Origin: a virus
Lineage: Duplodnaviria; Heunggongvirae; Uroviricota; Caudoviricetes
Virus record (IMG/VR): IMGVR_UViG_2609460344_000006
Coordinates: 1-12,509 of that record
Direction: 5' to 3' (one strand)
Length of the DNA stretch: 12,509 nucleotides
Under the pieces are notes generated by a model, which saw nothing but the letters and a program-made list of their open reading frames with translations, was not told the origin of the DNA and did not search any database. The first letter of the stretch is position 1; each line of letters opens with the position of its first letter. Made by a program: the position numbers and the translations under genes. Below, one piece after another: positions 7,559 through 12,509 of this stretch.

Positions 7559-8052
7559 CCCGGAAGCCCGGGGATTGTGATCTGCAACTGGTTAGCCAGG
7601 GAGTTAATCTCAGCGATCAAACCAGGTTTCGTGTAGCGCCATGCCGCAAGGACTTGCCCGCAGAAGCTCGCCATATCTTTTTTCTGATCAAACTCATGAC
7701 ACTTCATATTGAGCTGCGCACTTAAGCTGTTGCGATGCTGAAGTTCTCCGGTGAAGTAGTCATCCAGGACTTTATAGGCTGCATATTTAAATCCGGGGTT
7801 TAGCCATGTTGCATAATCATAAGCAACAAACTTCCCGCCATATGTTCCACCGTGTACACCGCGCTCAGTAAAAACCACAGATTCGTGGTTTTTCTCCAGC
7901 TCGGCTAAGAACTCTTTGGTCTGCTTGTTTCGCAGGTAGTGGTACGGAGATTCAGATTCACTTTTACCACTGGCTTTCCACATATCAGTGAGGCAGATCA
8001 TGCCATCTTCAGCGACACGGATTGGCTGATTGAAGAGGGTTAATGATTTCAT
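7498..8052 (-). CDS. KilA-N domain DNA-binding protein (Roi/antirepressor-like)
   Basis: From ATG 8052 the sequence MKSLTLFNQPIRVAEDGMICLTDMWKASGK...YLRNKQTKEFLAEL...GGTYGGKFVAYDYATWLNPGFKYAAYKVLDDYF is typical of KilA-N. I reject the upstream 23 codons of the track ORF. The tail PGLPGCVIVSLNAPPERGATSQRS looks out of frame. Confidence 0.85.
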   Translation of the reverse strand: MKSLTLFNQPIRVAEDGMICLTDMWKASGKSESESPYHYLRNKQTKEFLAELEKNHESVVFTERGVHGGTYGGKFVAYDYATWLNPGFKYAAYKVLDDYFTGELQHRNSLSAQLNMKCHEFDQKKDMASFCGQVLAAWRYTKPGLIAEINSLANQLQITIPGLPGCVIVSLNAPPERGATSQRS

Positions 8053-8202
8053 GTCGTATACCTGTTCTTTGAAATGAACCTTTGCCGCATAGGAAACCAG
8101 CCCACCGAGGCTCGCCAGCACTAACGGGTATCCTCAAAGGCCCATTCCAAAGGGTCAGGTTCGGTGGTTATTGTGCGCTGCGGTGCGCGGTGAAATATCT
8201 GT

Positions 8203-8228
8203 ACAAAAATGCCCCGCATCTGCGAGGC
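8203..8228 (-). terminator. Intrinsic terminator after the 83-aa gene
   Basis: Minus-strand RNA reads GCCUCGC-AGAU-GCGGGGC followed by AUUUUUGU. The U-G wobble works only on the minus strand. It is a near-copy of the terminator at 9888-9913. Confidence 0.7.
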
Positions 8229-8251
8229 TTTTAGCATGTGGAAAAGGTAGT

Positions 8252-8503
8252 TTATCGTCGCTCTTCAAGATAAGGATCTATGTTGCTAACTTTTTTGTAC
8301 TTCGGATCCTGCGGTAGTCGAACGGCGGGATCATATACAAGCCATATAGATTCAGACTTGCCATCTGAACCATCTGTGTTTTTACATGAGCGTAACTTGT
8401 AATGAATGATTCTATCTACGTCAGCGTACTCGGAGGTTGCATAAACTTCATATTTATTATCTCCGTGGCAAAGAATAGTTTTAACTAATTTTGTAGATGA
8501 CAT
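8252..8503 (-). CDS. Hypothetical 83-aa protein in AT-rich DNA
   Basis: ATG 8503 with AAGGAG 5 nt upstream. MSSTKLVKTILCHGDNKYEVYATSEYADVDRIIHYKLRSCKNTDGSDGKSESIWLVYDPAVRLPQDPKYKKVSNIDPYLEERR. No family recognised. It has its own terminator. Confidence 0.7.
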   Translation of the reverse strand: MSSTKLVKTILCHGDNKYEVYATSEYADVDRIIHYKLRSCKNTDGSDGKSESIWLVYDPAVRLPQDPKYKKVSNIDPYLEERR

Positions 8504-8589
8504 GTCTGCTCCTTTGTAATTGATGGGTATGACATATGACCACCAATAACAGTGCCATATTTCTGGTGATTATTGCAGCAACGAAATTA

Positions 8590-8620
8590 CAAGCCCACCC
8601 GTAGATGGGCTTTGTAATGG
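8590..8620. repeat. Right copy of the 31-bp hairpin-containing direct repeat
   Basis: caagcccaccCgtagatgggctttgtaatgg. It lies 30 nt downstream of the stop of the 67-aa gene. Confidence 0.9.
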
Positions 8621-8650
8621 AGAGTCGTTGTGAAAGTGGCTCTCAGACTG

Positions 8651-8854
8651 TCATTTTTTCCCTTTCTGTTTACCTGCCCACTGTTTTGCAATGTACAGGC
8701 AGTCATCGAAAATTCGGCCTTTTCTGCTGGCTTGTGAACAACGACGATAATGCTCTACGGCCATATCGGCACCCATTAAGGCGACATTGGGATCATATCC
8801 CTGTTTCACTAGGACGCTTTTCACATTACAGTGGATGAATTGGATCGGGTTCAT
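8651..8854 (-). CDS. Hypothetical 67-aa basic protein translationally coupled to the Bro-N gene
   Basis: The ATG at 8854 overlaps the Bro-N stop (ATGA at 8851-8854). MNPIQFIHCNVKSVLVKQGYDPNVALMGADMAVEHYRRCSQASRKGRIFDDCLYIAKQWAGKQKGKK. No family recognised. Confidence 0.7.
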   Translation of the reverse strand: MNPIQFIHCNVKSVLVKQGYDPNVALMGADMAVEHYRRCSQASRKGRIFDDCLYIAKQWAGKQKGKK

Positions 8855-9423
8855 GCCGACTCTCCATCAGGAAAGTCTCCTAGATCAGGAATTGATAATT
8901 GGGTCAATTGCAAGGCAATCTCTGTAGCTTTCTTGATCAATTTAATGTCACGCTTACGCTGTGCCATCAAACCACTACCTTTTTTCCCGCGATATTTGAG
9001 AGACTTTTTGTCAAACACATCTATCGCATCAAGCATTTTTTGCCCCGCAAGCTGCGGCAATGTCTCTAGATTCAAATGCCCAACCTCAACACCAGACTCT
9101 CTTTCGGCCAAATCAAGAAGCCAGATACGAAGCTCTTTAGCTATCTTGGTTCGCGACATCATGCCAATAAGGTGCGCCCCTCGAGGAGAAAACAATCGAA
9201 CCTGAGTGTAATCTATCATGCTGTTTTTATTACACTTCCTCACTTTGGTCACAATTGTCATGCTATCTGTAAACTCATCTTTATGACGATTGTAGATATT
9301 GGAAACCTTATTTGAATTCGCATAACCAAGCAGATCTGCCAATGCCTCAGCGGTAAACCAAATCTTCCCATCACCATTATCAAATGGAATCACGGTATTG
9401 TTTTTGAACGTCAGTTCGTTCAT
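8851..9423 (-). CDS. Bro-N domain protein (prophage antirepressor-like), 190 aa
   Basis: The true start is probably ATG 9423, with AGGAG 8 nt upstream. MNELTFKNNTVIPFDNGDGKIWFTAEALADLLGYANSNKVSNIYNRHKDEF...RLFSPRGAHLIGMMSRTKIAKELRIWLLD fits the Bro-N pattern. The basic C-terminal ~75 aa are unassigned. Confidence 0.85.
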   Translation of the reverse strand: MNELTFKNNTVIPFDNGDGKIWFTAEALADLLGYANSNKVSNIYNRHKDEFTDSMTIVTKVRKCNKNSMIDYTQVRLFSPRGAHLIGMMSRTKIAKELRIWLLDLAERESGVEVGHLNLETLPQLAGQKMLDAIDVFDKKSLKYRGKKGSGLMAQRKRDIKLIKKATEIALQLTQLSIPDLGDFPDGESA

Positions 9424-9560
9424 TGAGCGTACTCCTATAGAAATGAGCCTCGTTGCCCAGAAACGCCGCCCGCAGAGAGGTCGCCACCTATAACGACGGT
9501 TCTCCAAGGCTCATTTCTGTAAGGCTCTGCGATTTACATGCGCCGGGCATGGCGCAGATA

Positions 9561-9593
9561 TAAAAAAACCACCAACGCGGTAAGCGCCAGTGG
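9561..9593 (-). terminator. Intrinsic terminator in the spacer between Rz and the Bro-N gene
   Basis: Minus-strand RNA reads CCACUGGCGC-UUACC-GCGUUGGUGG (10 bp, three of them G-U pairs) followed by UUUUUUUAUAU. The wobble pairs make it specific to the minus strand. Confidence 0.6.
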
Positions 9594-9594
9594 C

Positions 9595-9681
9595 TTATTG
9601 ATACAGCCTCAAATTAATTGCCAGCACCGAGGTACCCACCCACAGAAGTTTCCCCTCGTTTTGGGGTGAGCTAGTCAACAT
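9595..9681 (-). CDS. Candidate 28-aa small protein (MLTSSPQNEGKLLWVGTSVLAINLRLYQ)
   Basis: Found by reading the sequence; it is below the ORF-track size cutoff. GGGGAG lies 5 nt before the ATG, and the stop TAA directly abuts the terminator stem at 9593. The Shine-Dalgarno sequence is the 3' arm of the hairpin CUCCCC-AAAACU-GGGGAG. Confidence 0.35.
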   Translation of the reverse strand: MLTSSPQNEGKLLWVGTSVLAINLRLYQ

Positions 9682-9887
9682 TTGCACTCCCCAGTTTTGG
9701 GGAGCTCAAACGTTCAACGATGATGCTGCAGATGCGTTCATACCGGCTTTACCTTTTAGTGATGAACCTTGTCACACAGGATTCCGGCCCACAGAAAGGC
9801 ACCGATCACCAAACCGGCATCCTCAAGGGTCATCCTGAAAGGTTCTGTGTTAATAAGTCGCGCGTGTGAAGCGCATTTACTGAGGAC

Positions 9888-9913
9888 ATAAAAAAGCCCC
9901 GCTTCTGCGAGGC
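9888..9913 (-). terminator. Intrinsic terminator downstream of Rz/Rz1
   Basis: Minus-strand RNA reads GCCUCGC-AGAA-GCGGGGC followed by UUUUUUAU, about 45 nt after the Rz stop. Confidence 0.7.
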
Positions 9914-9955
9914 ATTTTCCTGAAAGTCACTTGTTAAATTTCAGTGAAGTTAAAA

Positions 9956-10399
9956 TTATTTTAAGCACTGAGTCCTGATGTACTCCTGCAGGTAGTTAAC
10001 CTGCGCGGTTATCTTGTCGATTCCACTTCGGAGACGGTAATAATTGAGTTCAGCATCTGCTGTAAGTCTTGGGCTTTCTCCATCGCCCATGCTGCTGGCT
10101 CCGGTAGTTGACTTTGCACAGGTGGCGGCGACTTGCAGGCGCTTACGCCCAGCAGAAACATCAGCACGGAGACTTTCAATAGTCGCGTTAGCATCAGCAA
10201 GCTCCTTTGTGTATCTGGTGTCAAGTTCTGCTACATCACGTTGCCGCTTCTGCATATCAGCGATGATGGATGTGGCTTTATCGCGCTGCGCTTTGTAGGT
10301 AATCGCGTTATCACGGTAATGGTCTGTTGCCATCCACAGCGCACCACAGGCCACCAGCAGAATAACGATAAACGCGGAAAGCATTCGGTTTATGTTCAC
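9956..10399 (-). CDS. Rz: i-spanin Rz
   Basis: It has an N-terminal TMD (SAFIVILLVACGALW) and then HYRDNAITYKAQRDK...MQKRQRDVAELDTRYTKELADA...RLQV, which closely resembles lambda Rz. The GTG at 10399 overlaps the upstream stop (GTGA). ATG 10384 is an alternative start. Confidence 0.9.
   Translation of the reverse strand: MNINRMLSAFIVILLVACGALWMATDHYRDNAITYKAQRDKATSIIADMQKRQRDVAELDTRYTKELADANATIESLRADVSAGRKRLQVAATCAKSTTGASSMGDGESPRLTADAELNYYRLRSGIDKITAQVNYLQEYIRTQCLK
10009..10194 (-). CDS. Rz1: o-spanin Rz1 lipoprotein, embedded in the +1 frame of Rz
   Basis: MLTRLLKVSVLMFLLGVSACKSPPPVQSQLPEPAAWAM... has a lipobox-like LGVSAC and a proline-rich mature part, and lies wholly inside Rz. This is the classic embedded spanin architecture. 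Confidence 0.8.
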   Translation of the reverse strand: MLTRLLKVSVLMFLLGVSACKSPPPVQSQLPEPAAWAMEKAQDLQQMLNSIITVSEVESTR

Positions 10400-10527
10400 C
10401 CCAGCAACCCCGACGAAGACAACATCATCCAGGCCATGGAAAGAAAAAGAGCAACCAGCATTAGTGAAAATGAAATGCCGACAATTACACAGAGGATCTT
10501 CGCCAGCGTTATGAGTTTGTCTGACAT
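10396..10527 (-). CDS. 43-aa single-TMD membrane peptide between the endolysin and Rz
   Basis: ATG 10527 is preceded by GGGAGGA 6 nt upstream. MSDKLITLAKILCVIVGISFSLMLVALFLSMAWMMLSSSGLLG. Its stop overlaps the Rz GTG. I reject the N-terminal 30 codons of the track ORF. Confidence 0.6.
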   Translation of the reverse strand: MSDKLITLAKILCVIVGISFSLMLVALFLSMAWMMLSSSGLLG

Positions 10528-10541
10528 GCTTAATCCTCCCT

Positions 10542-10724
10542 TCACGATTTCAACGCAATGACCAGTTTTGCCAGCCCATACAGCATCGGGGACACAGCAA
10601 CACCGACCGCCACCCACTTAATGGCAAAAGCCAGTGCTCTGCTGATGTCATCAGTTACAGGCGCTTTCAGTTCAAGGCCATTTTTCATAGTCAACCTCAA
10701 CAGAATTCGTTTATACTTCGCCAT
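10542..10724 (-). CDS. 60-aa protein with a basic N-terminus and a C-terminal TMD, between the endolysin and Rz
   Basis: ATG 10724 is preceded by GGGAGA. MAKYKRILLRLTMKNGLELKAPVTDDISRALAFAIKWVAVGVAVSPMLYGLAKLVIALKS. There is a 14-nt gap, carrying a strong Shine-Dalgarno sequence, before the next gene. Confidence 0.55.
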   Translation of the reverse strand: MAKYKRILLRLTMKNGLELKAPVTDDISRALAFAIKWVAVGVAVSPMLYGLAKLVIALKS

Positions 10725-10757
10725 GTTCTCCCTTGCCTTACTCAAGGTCAGAAACAC

Positions 10758-10800
10758 AAAACCCCGCTTGGTGCCAACAAACGGGGTTTTTACTTTTATT
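10758..10800. terminator. Bidirectional terminator-like hairpin between the endolysin and the small membrane genes
   Basis: AAAACCCCG-N15-CGGGGTTTT. The plus strand continues TTTTTACTTTTATT and the minus strand continues UUUUGUGUUUCUG. Confidence 0.6.
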
Positions 10801-10880
10801 CACTTACGTTTCGCCAGTTCGCAGGATTTCGTGTTATCCGCCCGCGTGGCCATACCTTATTTTTCAGCAAAATATTCTGC

Positions 10881-11414
10881 TTATCTGTCGATTCCCCAGC
10901 ACGCCAGCGCGCTCTCCTGGTCACGACGGGATACCTGACCATAACAGTTATTTGAGCGGATACGGCAGTCTCTGCCACCGTCCTTAATCCACCAGCGAAT
11001 CGCCTCACACGCTCCCCTGCGATCACCTGCATTAATTCGTTTATAAAACGTCGACGGGAAACACTTACCGGGACCAATGTTGTACGGACAGAATGACGCG
11101 ATCCCCGCTTTCTGGGGTTCACTCAATGGCACTCTGATGTTTTTCTCCACCCATGCCAGCGCCTTATCACGCTCAATGGCGTTAACCCGGTCGCATTTTT
11201 CCTTCGACAACTTCATGCCCGGAACGACAGGTTTGCCATCCACCAGGATGGCACCGCGGCAGATGGTCCAGATACCCGCGCCATCACGGTATGCCGTGGT
11301 GTGGTTACCTTCCTTTTCATCCAGAAACTGGTCGAGGATTTCAGGCGCAGGCGCACCTGCGGCAATCAGCGCCAGAACGGCAGCCGACAGGCCGTATTTG
11401 ATTTTGGTGTTCAT
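10881..11414 (-). CDS. rrrQ: SAR endolysin, T4-lysozyme family (RrrQ-like, 177 aa)
   Basis: It has an Ala/Gly-rich N-terminal signal-arrest-release segment (YGLSAAVLALIAAGAPAP). The catalytic E-8-D-5-T spacing is present in EGNHTTAYRDGAGIWT. The sequence is close to what I recall of the Qin prophage RrrQ. Confidence 0.95.
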   Translation of the reverse strand: MNTKIKYGLSAAVLALIAAGAPAPEILDQFLDEKEGNHTTAYRDGAGIWTICRGAILVDGKPVVPGMKLSKEKCDRVNAIERDKALAWVEKNIRVPLSEPQKAGIASFCPYNIGPGKCFPSTFYKRINAGDRRGACEAIRWWIKDGGRDCRIRSNNCYGQVSRRDQESALACWGIDR

Positions 11415-11464
11415 GGATATTTATCAGGGTTTATCGATTTCAAATCCCTGGATATGTTAAGTCT

Positions 11465-11809
11465 TCAGGCCAGCGGTGGAGTCTTCAGAGAACCAGTAAT
11501 TATTCCCGGTAGTTTTCCTCTGTAGGTTATCAACACATCCTGCGCCTCTAAAATTACGGGGCGCTTTTCCGGCAACGGACCATCCCCTTCACATAACCCG
11601 GCAGCAACATCCATGAAAAACTGCTTCGCCTGCTTTTTCGCCTCAGCTTCGTAAAACTCCAGCGTGGCATCTTCAGTACGGTCAAGACTAATCGCCACAT
11701 CTGGCAACAACAGTGACGGATACCCACCAATTTCCAGTGCCACAGTAACAGTAATCTTATTCGGGTAATTATTTATCCCTTTAACAACCAGTTCGTATTT
11801 TTTCTTCAT
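11465..11809 (-). CDS. ydfR: DUF1327 (YdfR-like) protein inserted between the holin and the endolysin
   Basis: 114 aa, MKKKYELVVKGINNYPNKITVTVALEIGGYP... The start lies 4 nt after the holin stop, with GGGGAGAG upstream. It occupies the same position as ydfR in the Qin order essQ-ydfR-rrrQ, as I recall it. Confidence 0.8.
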   Translation of the reverse strand: MKKKYELVVKGINNYPNKITVTVALEIGGYPSLLLPDVAISLDRTEDATLEFYEAEAKKQAKQFFMDVAAGLCEGDGPLPEKRPVILEAQDVLITYRGKLPGIITGSLKTPPLA

Positions 11810-11813
11810 CGCT

Positions 11814-12029
11814 TTACTCTCCCCGCGCCGCCTTACGACGGTCCTCTCTGATTTTGAAATACAGGTTAGTCAGATATGTCAGCAGCCCAAACAGCAGACT
11901 CCCCAGTACGCCTATTGCCGCCCACTGAGACGGGGAAACCCTGTCCAGCAACTGCAGGAACCAGTAGCCCGTTCCCACCGCTGACGTGGTGTATGACACA
12001 CCTGTTGTGATTTTTTCCATCTGGTACAT
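11814..12029 (-). CDS. essQ: Class II pinholin, S21/EssQ-like (71 aa, dual start at Met1/Met4)
   Basis: [71 protein letters not shown] is near-identical in pattern to phage 21 S. It has two TMDs, the first rich in Gly/Ser/Thr, and a basic C-terminus. Confidence 0.95.
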
Positions 12030-12104
12030 ACCCCGTCTCCCGCAATCCGGAAGCTCACAACAACAAGTGGGGCATCAGCTCACACCGACACCCCCTGCGC
12101 ATGG

Positions 12105-12374
12105 TTACATCATCATTTCGCCGTCAGGCTGAGGCTCACTGCTACCATCAGGCTGAGACCCGACGCCATCTGAAACAGCACTGTCATCCGCAATGCCTTC
12201 CGGCTCCGGAACAGTCGGTGCGCCCAGCAGTTCATCCAGAATGGCATCCACTTCTGCATCAAGACGCGCCTCAAGGTTCTGCCGAAGTTGCTGTTTCAGT
12301 GCGCTTCTGACTTCTTCAGAGCGCAGGACTTCCTTCACTGCTTCAGCAGTGACCAGCGATTTTATTTCTGACAT
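12105..12374 (-). CDS. Small acidic hypothetical protein upstream of the holin (89 aa)
   Basis: The likely start is ATG 12374 (MSEIKSLVTAEAVKEVLRSEEVRSALKQQLRQNLEARLDAEVDAILDELL...), and the tail is acidic and Pro/Gly/Ser-rich. I recall similar ORFs upstream of S in E. coli lambdoid prophages. The Shine-Dalgarno sequence is weak (GAGAAA). Confidence 0.7.
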   Translation of the reverse strand: MSEIKSLVTAEAVKEVLRSEEVRSALKQQLRQNLEARLDAEVDAILDELLGAPTVPEPEGIADDSAVSDGVGSQPDGSSEPQPDGEMMM

Positions 12375-12509
12375 GGTATTTTCTCGTTGAAAGGTGTTGT
12401 TAAGAAAGTTGCTACGGAATGAGAGGCTCTTCGGGTTTTGTTCCGGCTGACTGACTGGCACTGATTTTCTCAGCGGCCCTTTTGTCAATCTGTCTGCGCC
12501 AGAAATCTC

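Follow-up and report, generated by a model that had tools for sequence, protein, structure and literature searches.

What occupies the apparently empty gap of 450 base pairs (bp) that follows the Rz gene in the late operon of a lambdoid prophage? The question is raised by a stretch of 12,509 nucleotides (nt), positions 1 to 12,509 of IMG/VR record IMGVR_UViG_2609460344_000006 (hereafter, the window), which represents such a late operon on the minus strand and is 100% identical to a prophage of Escherichia coli strain cM8a. An original prediction, made for the interval 9913 to 9561 from sequence alone, listed two terminators, two hairpins, a direct repeat, and several small open reading frames (ORFs), and proposed a type I toxin or small regulatory membrane protein or, alternatively, a structured small RNA (sRNA). 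All these features are present on the minus strand, to which the coordinates below refer, and their positions are correct to within 1 nt. Their meaning appears to be different: the interval very probably consists of a complete leader cassette, now orphaned, and behind it the remains of the collapsed gene that it had preceded, and is neither a toxin gene nor an sRNA gene.

A structured leader unit downstream of Rz

The cassette that follows Rz (cassette 1; 9913 to 9742) starts with an intrinsic terminator, continues with a small hairpin of GCGC type, and ends in a multi-helix leader of about 95 nt. The terminator (9913 to 9890), one of the two in the original prediction and recovered by a terminator scan, has a 7-bp stem at 9913-9896 and a run of six U residues at 9895-9890. 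The small hairpin, UGCGC-UUCACAC-GCGCG, lies at 9875-9859, and the leader core extends from 9850 to 9742. The closing helix of the leader, P0, is formed by the near-invariant anti-Shine-Dalgarno segment CCUUU (9842-9838) and the Shine-Dalgarno (SD) sequence AAAGG (9756-9752). Helix P1 has its 5' strand at 9836-9824 and its 3' strand at 9771-9758, and a junction strand, GUGUGA (9777-9772), connects P2 with P1.

At least 120 IMG/VR loci contain the 17-mer found at 9846-9830, and in these loci the next ~95 nt are conserved, with many insertions and deletions. The leader always ends in CAUCACUAAAAGG, an SD sequence, with an ATG 6 to 10 nt further on. A small hairpin of the form GCGC-N6-7-GCGC is found 5 to 14 nt upstream of nearly every leader copy, and a terminator-like hairpin with a T-run lies no more than 75 nt upstream of 90 of the 101 distinct cassettes, compared with 21 of 505 segments drawn at random from these loci. 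The data establish how and on which strand the unit folds, that it occupies a fixed place in which the closing helix includes the SD, that a terminator lies upstream, and which classes of genes are served. With a covariance model of the leader (R1), the window yields three copies, each of them on the minus strand, and leader 1 scores 118.9 bits over 9850-9741; a model of the whole unit (R2) scores 138 bits over 9889-9741. When applied to the plus strand of copy 1, R1 yields 18 bits versus 119 bits on the minus strand. This difference, together with frequent G-U pairs on one strand only, favors the strand of the late operon as the one on which the RNA folds.

The fold is seen in alignments made with and without the model. 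RNAalifold, run on MAFFT alignments, predicts a long closing helix, and on an unguided alignment it recovers P1. In this diverse alignment, which was not fitted to the model, 92.6% of the cells in P0, P1, and P2 are paired, versus 37 to 59% with slid partner columns, and eight pairs show double changes. Fitting 103 distinct sequences to the model gives an alignment with 96.5% paired cells (98.8% in P0), in which double changes affect 27 of the 39 pairs, compared with 12.8 in shuffles; none of the 500 shuffles reaches the observed value. Covariation supports every helix but one. The motif YCUNNGGGC is nearly invariant over 29 subfamily representatives; the model pairs its GGGC with hairpin B, and the pairs of hairpin B never covary. 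An inner pairing of CCGG with GGCCGG, also proposed by RNAalifold, may represent an alternative conformer.

The small hairpin belongs to the same structure. Its stem covaries (GCGC/GCGC, UGCGU/ACGCA, GUGUC/GACAC, UGCACU/GGUGCA, and UGCGCC/GGCGCA are all found), and its loop, UCACAC at 9869-9864 in cassette 1, can base-pair with the junction strand that connects P2 with P1. Loop and strand covary as well, which makes this pairing a pseudoknot, with UCACAC/GUGUGA in unit 1, UGCCC/GGGCA in unit 2, and CCGCA/UGCGG in unit 3; other loop/junction pairs include UCUCAC/GUGAGA, UCGCAC/GUGCGA, and CGCCC/GGGCG. An unfitted MAFFT alignment has 89.9% of the pseudoknot cells paired, with GC (18), UA (8), and AU (7) at the central pair. 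Model R2 was built without the pseudoknot, so that its alignment provides an independent test. In this alignment, 91.9% of the cells are paired versus 80.4% in shuffles, there are 62 double-change cells versus 15.4, and the covariation score is 0.279 versus 0.096; none of the 500 shuffles reaches the observed paired share, double-change count, or covariation score. The central pair is GC in 46, AU in 30, and UA in 15 cases. When slid by 2 columns in either direction, the two strands still pair, because of the CA/GU repeat register, but with a covariation score of only 0.04 to 0.10. The covariation of loop and junction indicates that the functional unit is a pseudoknotted RNA of about 150 nt. 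A second candidate pseudoknot, between CACAG in the 5' flank and CUGUG, was discarded, as it proved by inspection to be inconsistent across the subfamilies. With its compensatory changes, a fold on the gene strand, and a fixed position before the start codon that includes the ribosome-binding site, the unit is a conserved structured cis-regulatory RNA of the 5'-leader type. The alternative view of the interval as a structured RNA therefore holds for its 5' third, in the form of a cis-acting leader and not of a free-standing sRNA.

The leader core contains an entire 25-amino-acid ORF (9833 to 9756), whose product, MTLEDAGLVIGAFLWAGILCDKVHH, is indeed hydrophobic, and which overlaps a 19-codon ORF (9889-9830) through the sequence ATGA. 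Among the homologues at the loci with the 17-mer, the ORF that starts at AUG 9833 varies in length from 5 to 135 codons and, after about 7 codons, switches among all three frames, owing to insertions and deletions that are not multiples of three. Such variation of length and frame means that the 25-amino-acid ORF is not a conserved protein: it is the ORF that is broken in homologues, whereas the RNA structure is kept. AUG 9833 itself consists of paired bases of P1, is replaced by non-AUG triplets in divergent members (loci L098, L165, and L199), and has no properly spaced SD, as AGGAUG abuts the start. These data also bear on a coupling mechanism of the kind known for IsrK. In the Salmonella prophage Gifsy-1, a terminator precedes orf45 and the anti-repressor gene anrP follows it; orf45 is conserved in nucleotides but variable in peptide, and is needed for anrP translation (PMC4825925). 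The cassette shares the combination of conserved nucleotides with a variable peptide, which would be expected if its ORF, too, had to be translated for translation of the downstream anti-repressor. However, the stop codon of the ORF may lie as far as 63 nt upstream or 332 nt downstream of the SD, three loci lack the AUG altogether, the AUG has no usable SD where it is present, and the Rfam model of isrK does not match the cassette, matching elsewhere in the prophage at locus L088. We consider such coupling quite unlikely.

The same frame variability accounts for a 63-amino-acid "hypothetical protein" annotated in P22-like records, namely at L001 1540-1731 (VSe13, vse13_064) and at L002 1540-1731 (118970_sal4, ORF41). 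This ORF starts inside the post-Rz terminator, spans the leader, and overlaps the start of rha; it is very likely a recurrent gene-calling artefact. The unit thus explains the mis-annotated hypothetical proteins that recur after Rz.

The other two copies in the window directly precede genes. Cassette 2 (9556 to 9421) has its small hairpin at 9556-9539, with the loop UGCCC at 9549-9545, and its leader at 9532-9421, with the junction strand GGGCA at 9458-9454; the SD AGGAG (9436-9432) is followed by the ATG of the BRO-N gene at 9423-9421. It scores 56.9 bits with R1 and 91.5 bits with R2 (over 9570-9421). Cassette 3 (8228 to 8050) starts with a terminator stem at 8228-8211, followed by ATTTTT, and continues with a small hairpin at 8188-8175 (loop CCGCA at 8183-8179); its leader occupies 8161-8055, including the junction strand UGCGG (8089-8085), and directly after it comes the ATG of the KilA-N gene (8052-8050). 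This copy, which is absent from the seed alignment of R1, scores 45.1 bits with R1 (E = 1.5e-8) and 72.8 bits with R2.

Remains of an anti-repressor gene and of an Rz start

The rest of the interval, 9741 to 9566, appears from its sequence matches to be a collapsed AntA-type anti-repressor gene joined to the 5' end (about 20 codons) of the Rz gene that once stood behind it. Immediately after the leader SD, an 11-codon stub (MNASAASSLNV and a stop; 9741-9706) preserves the 36-nt 5' end of the lost gene and resembles the starts of intact AntA genes that stand behind the same leader, MNTSVDSS in L018 and MNISVASF in L148. At 9723-9640 there are two tandem fragments of a stretch that codes for VENLSSPKR(A/G)SAK(SRQQ) in AntA genes, fragment A at 9723-9682 and fragment B at 9679-9640. 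The fragments share 82 to 90% identity with the part of intact AntA genes that codes for the motif (E = 2e-7 to 5e-3), and the pairwise match of the motif stretch has E = 6e-4. Among 31 distinct variants of this stretch, 28 are located in open frames of 147 to 333 amino acids, of which 27 encode the LSSPK motif. Apart from the 36-nt start and the two ~40-nt fragments, there is no intact ORF of the AntA/AntB family (PF08346) at 9741-9640, which marks the segment as a pseudogene relic and not as a member of the family. It shows no sign of selection among its seven near-identical copies.

This origin explains the twin hairpins, to which the original prediction had given prominence. Hairpin 1, CUCCCC-AAAACU-GGGGAG, is found at 9704-9687, 1 nt from the position 9705-9688 given for it, and forms the core of a longer inverted repeat with 17-nt arms (9714-9698 and 9693-9677) inside fragment A; hairpin 2 is located exactly as claimed, at 9666-9652, inside fragment B. 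In intact AntA genes, the palindrome is often imperfect (e.g., CUCACC/GGCGAG), and these frequent mismatches identify it as a by-product of the codons for Ser-Ser-Pro-Lys-Arg-Ala-Ser and not as a selected hairpin. Selection on hairpin 1 had been considered, since its forms in the window, L012, and L148 looked compensatory, and was rejected in view of the mismatches among the 31 variants. Hairpin 2 represents a second, frame-shifted copy of the ENLSSPKR stretch, which accounts for the direct repeat (9653-9666 and 9689-9702, with a spacing of 36 nt). Both hairpins are fossils of coding sequence. An exact-pattern scan for hairpin 1 found no match in genomes, and its seven viral matches were dismissed as unrelated chance hairpins. 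At two other IMG/VR loci, L171 and L197, the AntA-motif palindrome is located outside any long ORF, in the form TTTTTTGAGCTCGCCAAAACGGGGGAGCTCAAATTTTC, and looks like another relic or a terminator of the same sequence.

The second terminator (9596-9561), with a stem of 13 pairs at 9596-9566 followed by seven U residues, is also the first component of cassette 2, and the tail of its U-run resembles the tails of other unit terminators. Its stem is 81 to 91% identical, over 32 nt, to the 5' ends of Rz genes, where it codes for a transmembrane stretch, ..WKPLALIALVAL (..KPLALxALV..). In loci that contain both, the Rz-start match lies ~570 to 770 nt downstream of the AntA motif (e.g., L165, L173, L151, and L156), and in several of these loci the leader precedes the AntA gene (e.g., L165, L156, and L173). 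Given this colinear order of AntA start, AntA motif, and Rz start, segment 9741-9566 can be understood as a leader-ant-Rz segment that collapsed with the loss of ~800 nt. Where ant lies between R and Rz (L018, L148, L165, and others), the start of the Rz gene is a palindrome that codes for a transmembrane stretch, GCCACTGGCGC...GCGTTGGTGGC, with TTTGTC behind it. The palindrome forms a terminator-like hairpin inside the coding region, with a tail nearly identical to those of the cassette terminators; the shared tails suggest recombination at these sites.

The 28-amino-acid ORF of the original prediction runs from ATG 9681 to the TAA at 9597-9595, which abuts the stem of terminator 2; the ORF listing extends it to 30 amino acids from GTG 9687 (9687-9595). 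It is embedded in the relic and is a chance ORF there, with three nonsynonymous and one synonymous change among the seven near-identical copies. Its putative SD, GGGGAG (9692-9687), is held in hairpin 1, 5 nt upstream of the ATG, and this arrangement had been part of the case for a type I toxin or small membrane protein, whose 25- or 28-amino-acid ORF would be translated from a hairpin-sequestered ribosome-binding site and would have its own terminator. Besides the presence of these ORFs, the hydrophobicity of the 25-residue peptide, and the position of GGGGAG, such a reading could draw on the strong folding of the region, as the RNA 9920-9560 folds better than 100 of 100 shuffled sequences (z = -4.7). 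It is contradicted by the varying frame and poorly placed, P1-paired start of the 25-amino-acid ORF, by the location of the 28-amino-acid ORF within the AntA/Rz fossil, and by the sequence GGGTAG, which replaces GGGGAG in all six homologous loci. ORFs of 20 to 50 amino acids are unremarkable as such, nine of them overlapping 9500-9960 over both strands. The small peptides of the gap have no Pfam or NCBIfam match at E <= 1, and none of the type I toxin/antitoxin families in Rfam (Hok/Sok, Ldr/Rdl, Ibs/Sib, TisB/IstR, Zor/Orz, etc.) matches at its gathering score; the best sub-threshold match, istR, reaches 20 bits where 45 would be required and is due to the terminator. The interval also lacks a detectable promoter (see below). 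A toxin gene of this type is therefore extremely improbable, and the mini-ORFs of the gap are, as far as can be judged from their sequences, chance ORFs.

Distribution of the unit and the mosaic around it

Genome scans detected the leader unit in 16 species of Enterobacterales, including representatives of Raoultella, Entomohabitans, Arsenophonus, Providencia, Salmonella, Edwardsiella, Siccibacter, Serratia, Citrobacter, Enterobacter, Pantoea, and Scandinavium, as well as Yersinia pestis. In Shiga toxin (Stx) phage 933W, it is located between R and ant, directly before ant, and in HK106 it precedes a gene for a GIY-YIG nuclease. Altogether, the SD that forms the 3' strand of P0 is found before ~40 different gene starts, with the ATG 6 to 10 nt downstream. 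The Pfam domains encoded by these genes include Phage_pRha with or without ORF11CD3, KilA-N with P63C or ORF11CD3, P22_AR_N, ANT/KilAC, AntA/AntB, Bro-N, and HNH_3. Most of these families belong to the "Bro network" of domain-swapping DNA-binding proteins (PMC10111431).

More distant relatives of the cassette, with R2 scores of 62 to 70 bits (L088, 9813-9956; L042, 3260-3403; L044, 9575-9718; L019, 2107-2250), precede a TerB-like gene near tRNA genes and the STnc100 sRNA, elsewhere in lambdoid prophages; the family is thus not confined to the post-lysis position. An enterobacterial-type cassette with the start of a P22_AR_N-type gene on a 392-nt contig of Xanthomonas pisi DSM 18956 (L143) probably represents assembly contamination. 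Segment 9500-9570, which covers the small hairpin of cassette 2 and the beginning of its leader, has matches with 83 to 89% identity in 35 other E. coli genomes, some of them under or beside DNA methyltransferase genes.

In the window, the late operon starts with genes for holin, a YdfR-family protein, and lysozyme, followed by two small ORFs, Rz (10399-9956), and the gap. After the gap come the BRO-N gene (ATG 9423), annotated by PGAP and supported by a Pfam match, small ORFs, the KilA-N gene (ATG 8052), whose domain was identified by a Pfam match, and genes for an HNH endonuclease, terminase, capsid, and portal. The portal gene at L003 18285-20461, which lies beyond window position ~1675, is marked as frameshifted by PGAP, and the prophage may therefore be defective. 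Between 9200 and 10300, 7 terminator-like sites were found versus 1.0 expected from shuffles, and terminators flank each of the accessory genes. In agreement with the original prediction, which had noted the lack of a convincing sigma-70 promoter, a consensus scan of the interval found no sigma-70-like promoter on the minus strand or on the plus strand, and none between terminator and leader, a scan that weak or non-sigma-70 promoters may escape. Candidates between terminator and leader consisted of A/T-rich hexamers without the conserved T6 and without a -35 partner, and were rejected.

The gap proved to be a mosaic. Segment 9960 to 9749 shares 91 to 99% identity with the region behind Rz in Stx phages and P22-like Salmonella phages. 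It is matched in 208 phage records and in 931 of 5,426 complete E. coli genomes (938 records), the median genome having 3 such places. The unit thus precedes anti-repressor-like genes in about one-sixth of complete E. coli genomes, often in several copies, and is present in 933W and other Stx phages, P22-like Salmonella phages, and many prophages of Enterobacterales. Segment 9846 to 9419 is 94 to 95% identical to four IMG/VR prophages, Edwardsiella hoshinae, and Edwardsiella ictaluri, and homology to the Edwardsiella type stops exactly at the start codon of the downstream gene. Segment 9749 to 9570 has no match in any other complete E. coli genome or in any INPHARED phage record. The breakpoints of homology (9846, ~9749, and the start codon at 9421) coincide with the edges of cassettes, and the leader units clearly act as recombination joints; the left part of the arrangement in the window was made by recombination within the 3' end of the leader, at ~9749. 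The unit offers an explanation at the sequence level for how Bro-network genes are shuffled as cassettes.

These breakpoints, the three copies in a single prophage, and the great diversity of the downstream genes would also fit an element that acts only as DNA, either a recombination linker or a palindromic operator with a promoter, and has no function as RNA. However, its pairs are compensatory and long range, including a pseudoknot between sites ~90 nt apart, and the G-U pairs occur on one strand. Strand-specific covariation over such distances is a signature of RNA and not of a protein-binding DNA site, and the scans detected no -10/-35 consensus. We regard a role at the level of DNA alone as very unlikely.

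The mosaic bears as well on whether leader 1, the relic, and terminator 2 together form a noncoding RNA of ~300 nt that acts in trans, for instance on leaders 2 and 3. Leader 1 has remained intact (138 bits) without a gene, with a strong terminator behind it; the arrangement persists in E. hoshinae, E. ictaluri, and the four IMG/VR prophages; and prophage and leader-derived sRNAs such as IsrK/STnc1160 are known. Still, consensus scans detect no promoter for such an RNA, the leader runs straight into a coding gene elsewhere in the family, the left part of the arrangement can be traced to recombination at ~9749, and the relic lacks any sign of selection. An sRNA gene at this position is unlikely. 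The 450-bp "empty" gap is better understood as an orphaned leader and a collapsed ant-Rz segment, and with a toxin gene and an sRNA gene both improbable, a false lead is removed.

Possible role of the unit and relation to known systems

The cassette probably works in the following way. The cassette would be read as part of the late transcript, antiterminated by Q, and its terminator would stop any RNA polymerase that has not been modified by Q. The folded leader would hold the ribosome-binding site in a helix, such that the regulators and nucleases, which may do harm, would be translated at a low level or only when something opens or cleaves the fold. The orphaned leader 1 would now drive at most the 11-codon stub. 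The palindrome and U-run of the Rz stub form terminator 2, which opens cassette 2 for the BRO-N gene. In unit 1, the predicted probability that the SD is unpaired is 0.07, versus a median of 0.57 with a shuffled upstream part.

Several points weigh against this account, of which the first concerns occlusion itself: it is weak or ambiguous in unit 2, with a probability of 0.39 versus 0.33 for shuffles, and moderate in unit 3 (0.20 versus 0.50). That the RNA is produced solely within the late transcript and that it limits translation are both steps that we infer. The placement of the terminator before the leader, and not after it, is not explained mechanistically. The seven copies of the relic are 97 to 98% identical and leave few substitutions from which to judge its neutrality. 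Finally, a plain hairpin would be enough to occlude the SD, and the three-way fold, the pseudoknot, and the YCUNNGGGC motif suggest an additional partner of the conserved core, which could be a ligand, a protein, or an RNase.

This last point leads to a bolder proposal, in which the cassette would be an aptamer-like sensor, i.e., a new class of riboswitch or protein-responsive RNA in lambdoid phages, including Shiga toxin phage 933W. Its architecture includes a junction, a pseudoknot, and a conserved YCUNNGGGC motif, and no known riboswitch model in Rfam matches it. We view this as a tentative and rather doubtful possibility; if true, a signal from host or phage would act through the sensor in late development to control whether Bro-network (anti-repressor-type) regulators and homing-type nucleases are translated. 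For the leader in general, the ability of anti-repressors to tip the balance between lysis and lysogeny makes an RNA device shared upstream of their genes a testable handle on their silencing or timing.

The leader unit apparently constitutes a new family among structured 5' leaders. It is absent from Rfam 15, none of whose 4,227 families overlaps the cassette (in the window at the gathering score, in the region at E <= 10, and in 17 related loci), with the sub-threshold matches to trpB, istR, and GcvB resting on terminators, and no description of the leader, by sequence or by topic, was found in the searchable literature. Similar in design are leaders that sequester the SD, including the expression platforms of riboswitches, in which the closing helix includes the SD. 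The cassette shares with them the SD-containing closing helix, a multi-helix core, a pseudoknot, conserved nucleotides, and covariation, and differs in having its terminator upstream of the fold and not downstream.

RNA-level restraint on the synthesis of phage anti-repressors is familiar from sar/ant of P22 and c4/icd-ant of P1 and P7, where the anti-repressor genes are controlled by antisense RNA. Both sar and c4 are trans-acting or antisense RNAs that have their own promoters in immI regions, whereas the cassette belongs to the late operon and is an intramolecular fold of the sense strand; Rfam scans of the window gave no match to C4 or sar.

A likeness also exists to the IsrK-orf45-anrP system, in which a terminator is likewise followed by a structured, translationally inactive leader before an anti-repressor gene (PMC4825925). 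The two are analogues and not homologues, as there is no similarity of sequence or model, and a scan of the region with a cutoff of E <= 10 gave no match to the isrK family (RF01394). IsrK is found in a region of immunity type, with a C4 RNA as its neighbor, whereas the cassette is found in the late operon; the IsrK mechanism requires a promoter-driven sRNA upstream of the terminator and coupling through an upstream ORF, neither of which is supported for the cassette; and the stop codon of that upstream ORF overlaps the anti-repressor start (AUGA), whereas the position of the stop varies in the cassette. At L088 (12854-13041), isrK and the C4 antisense RNA (RF01695) are found side by side in a prophage that also has three cassettes, which indicates that the two RNA systems are distinct and coexist.

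Noncoding RNAs at conserved positions in lambdoid prophages also include AgvB, AsxR, the Pas sRNAs, and STnc100, which are prophage sRNAs of pathogenic E. coli (PMC4104026; bioRxiv 10.64898/2026.05.13.724894). These are short, terminated sRNAs encoded downstream of PR'/Q, at the site of the stx moron. None of their Rfam models has a match in the window or in the cassettes, and AgvB, AsxR, and the Pas sRNAs were rejected as candidates for the gap on account of their location downstream of PR' and not after Rz.

Finally, the genes served by the unit recall the morons described for lambdoid phages (Juhala et al. 2000, cited in PMC4104026). Like morons, they are accessory genes that are inserted in the late region and flanked by terminators. 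The classical moron has its own promoter upstream and a terminator downstream, whereas in the cassette arrangement the scans found no promoter, and both the terminator and the structured leader stand upstream of the gene.

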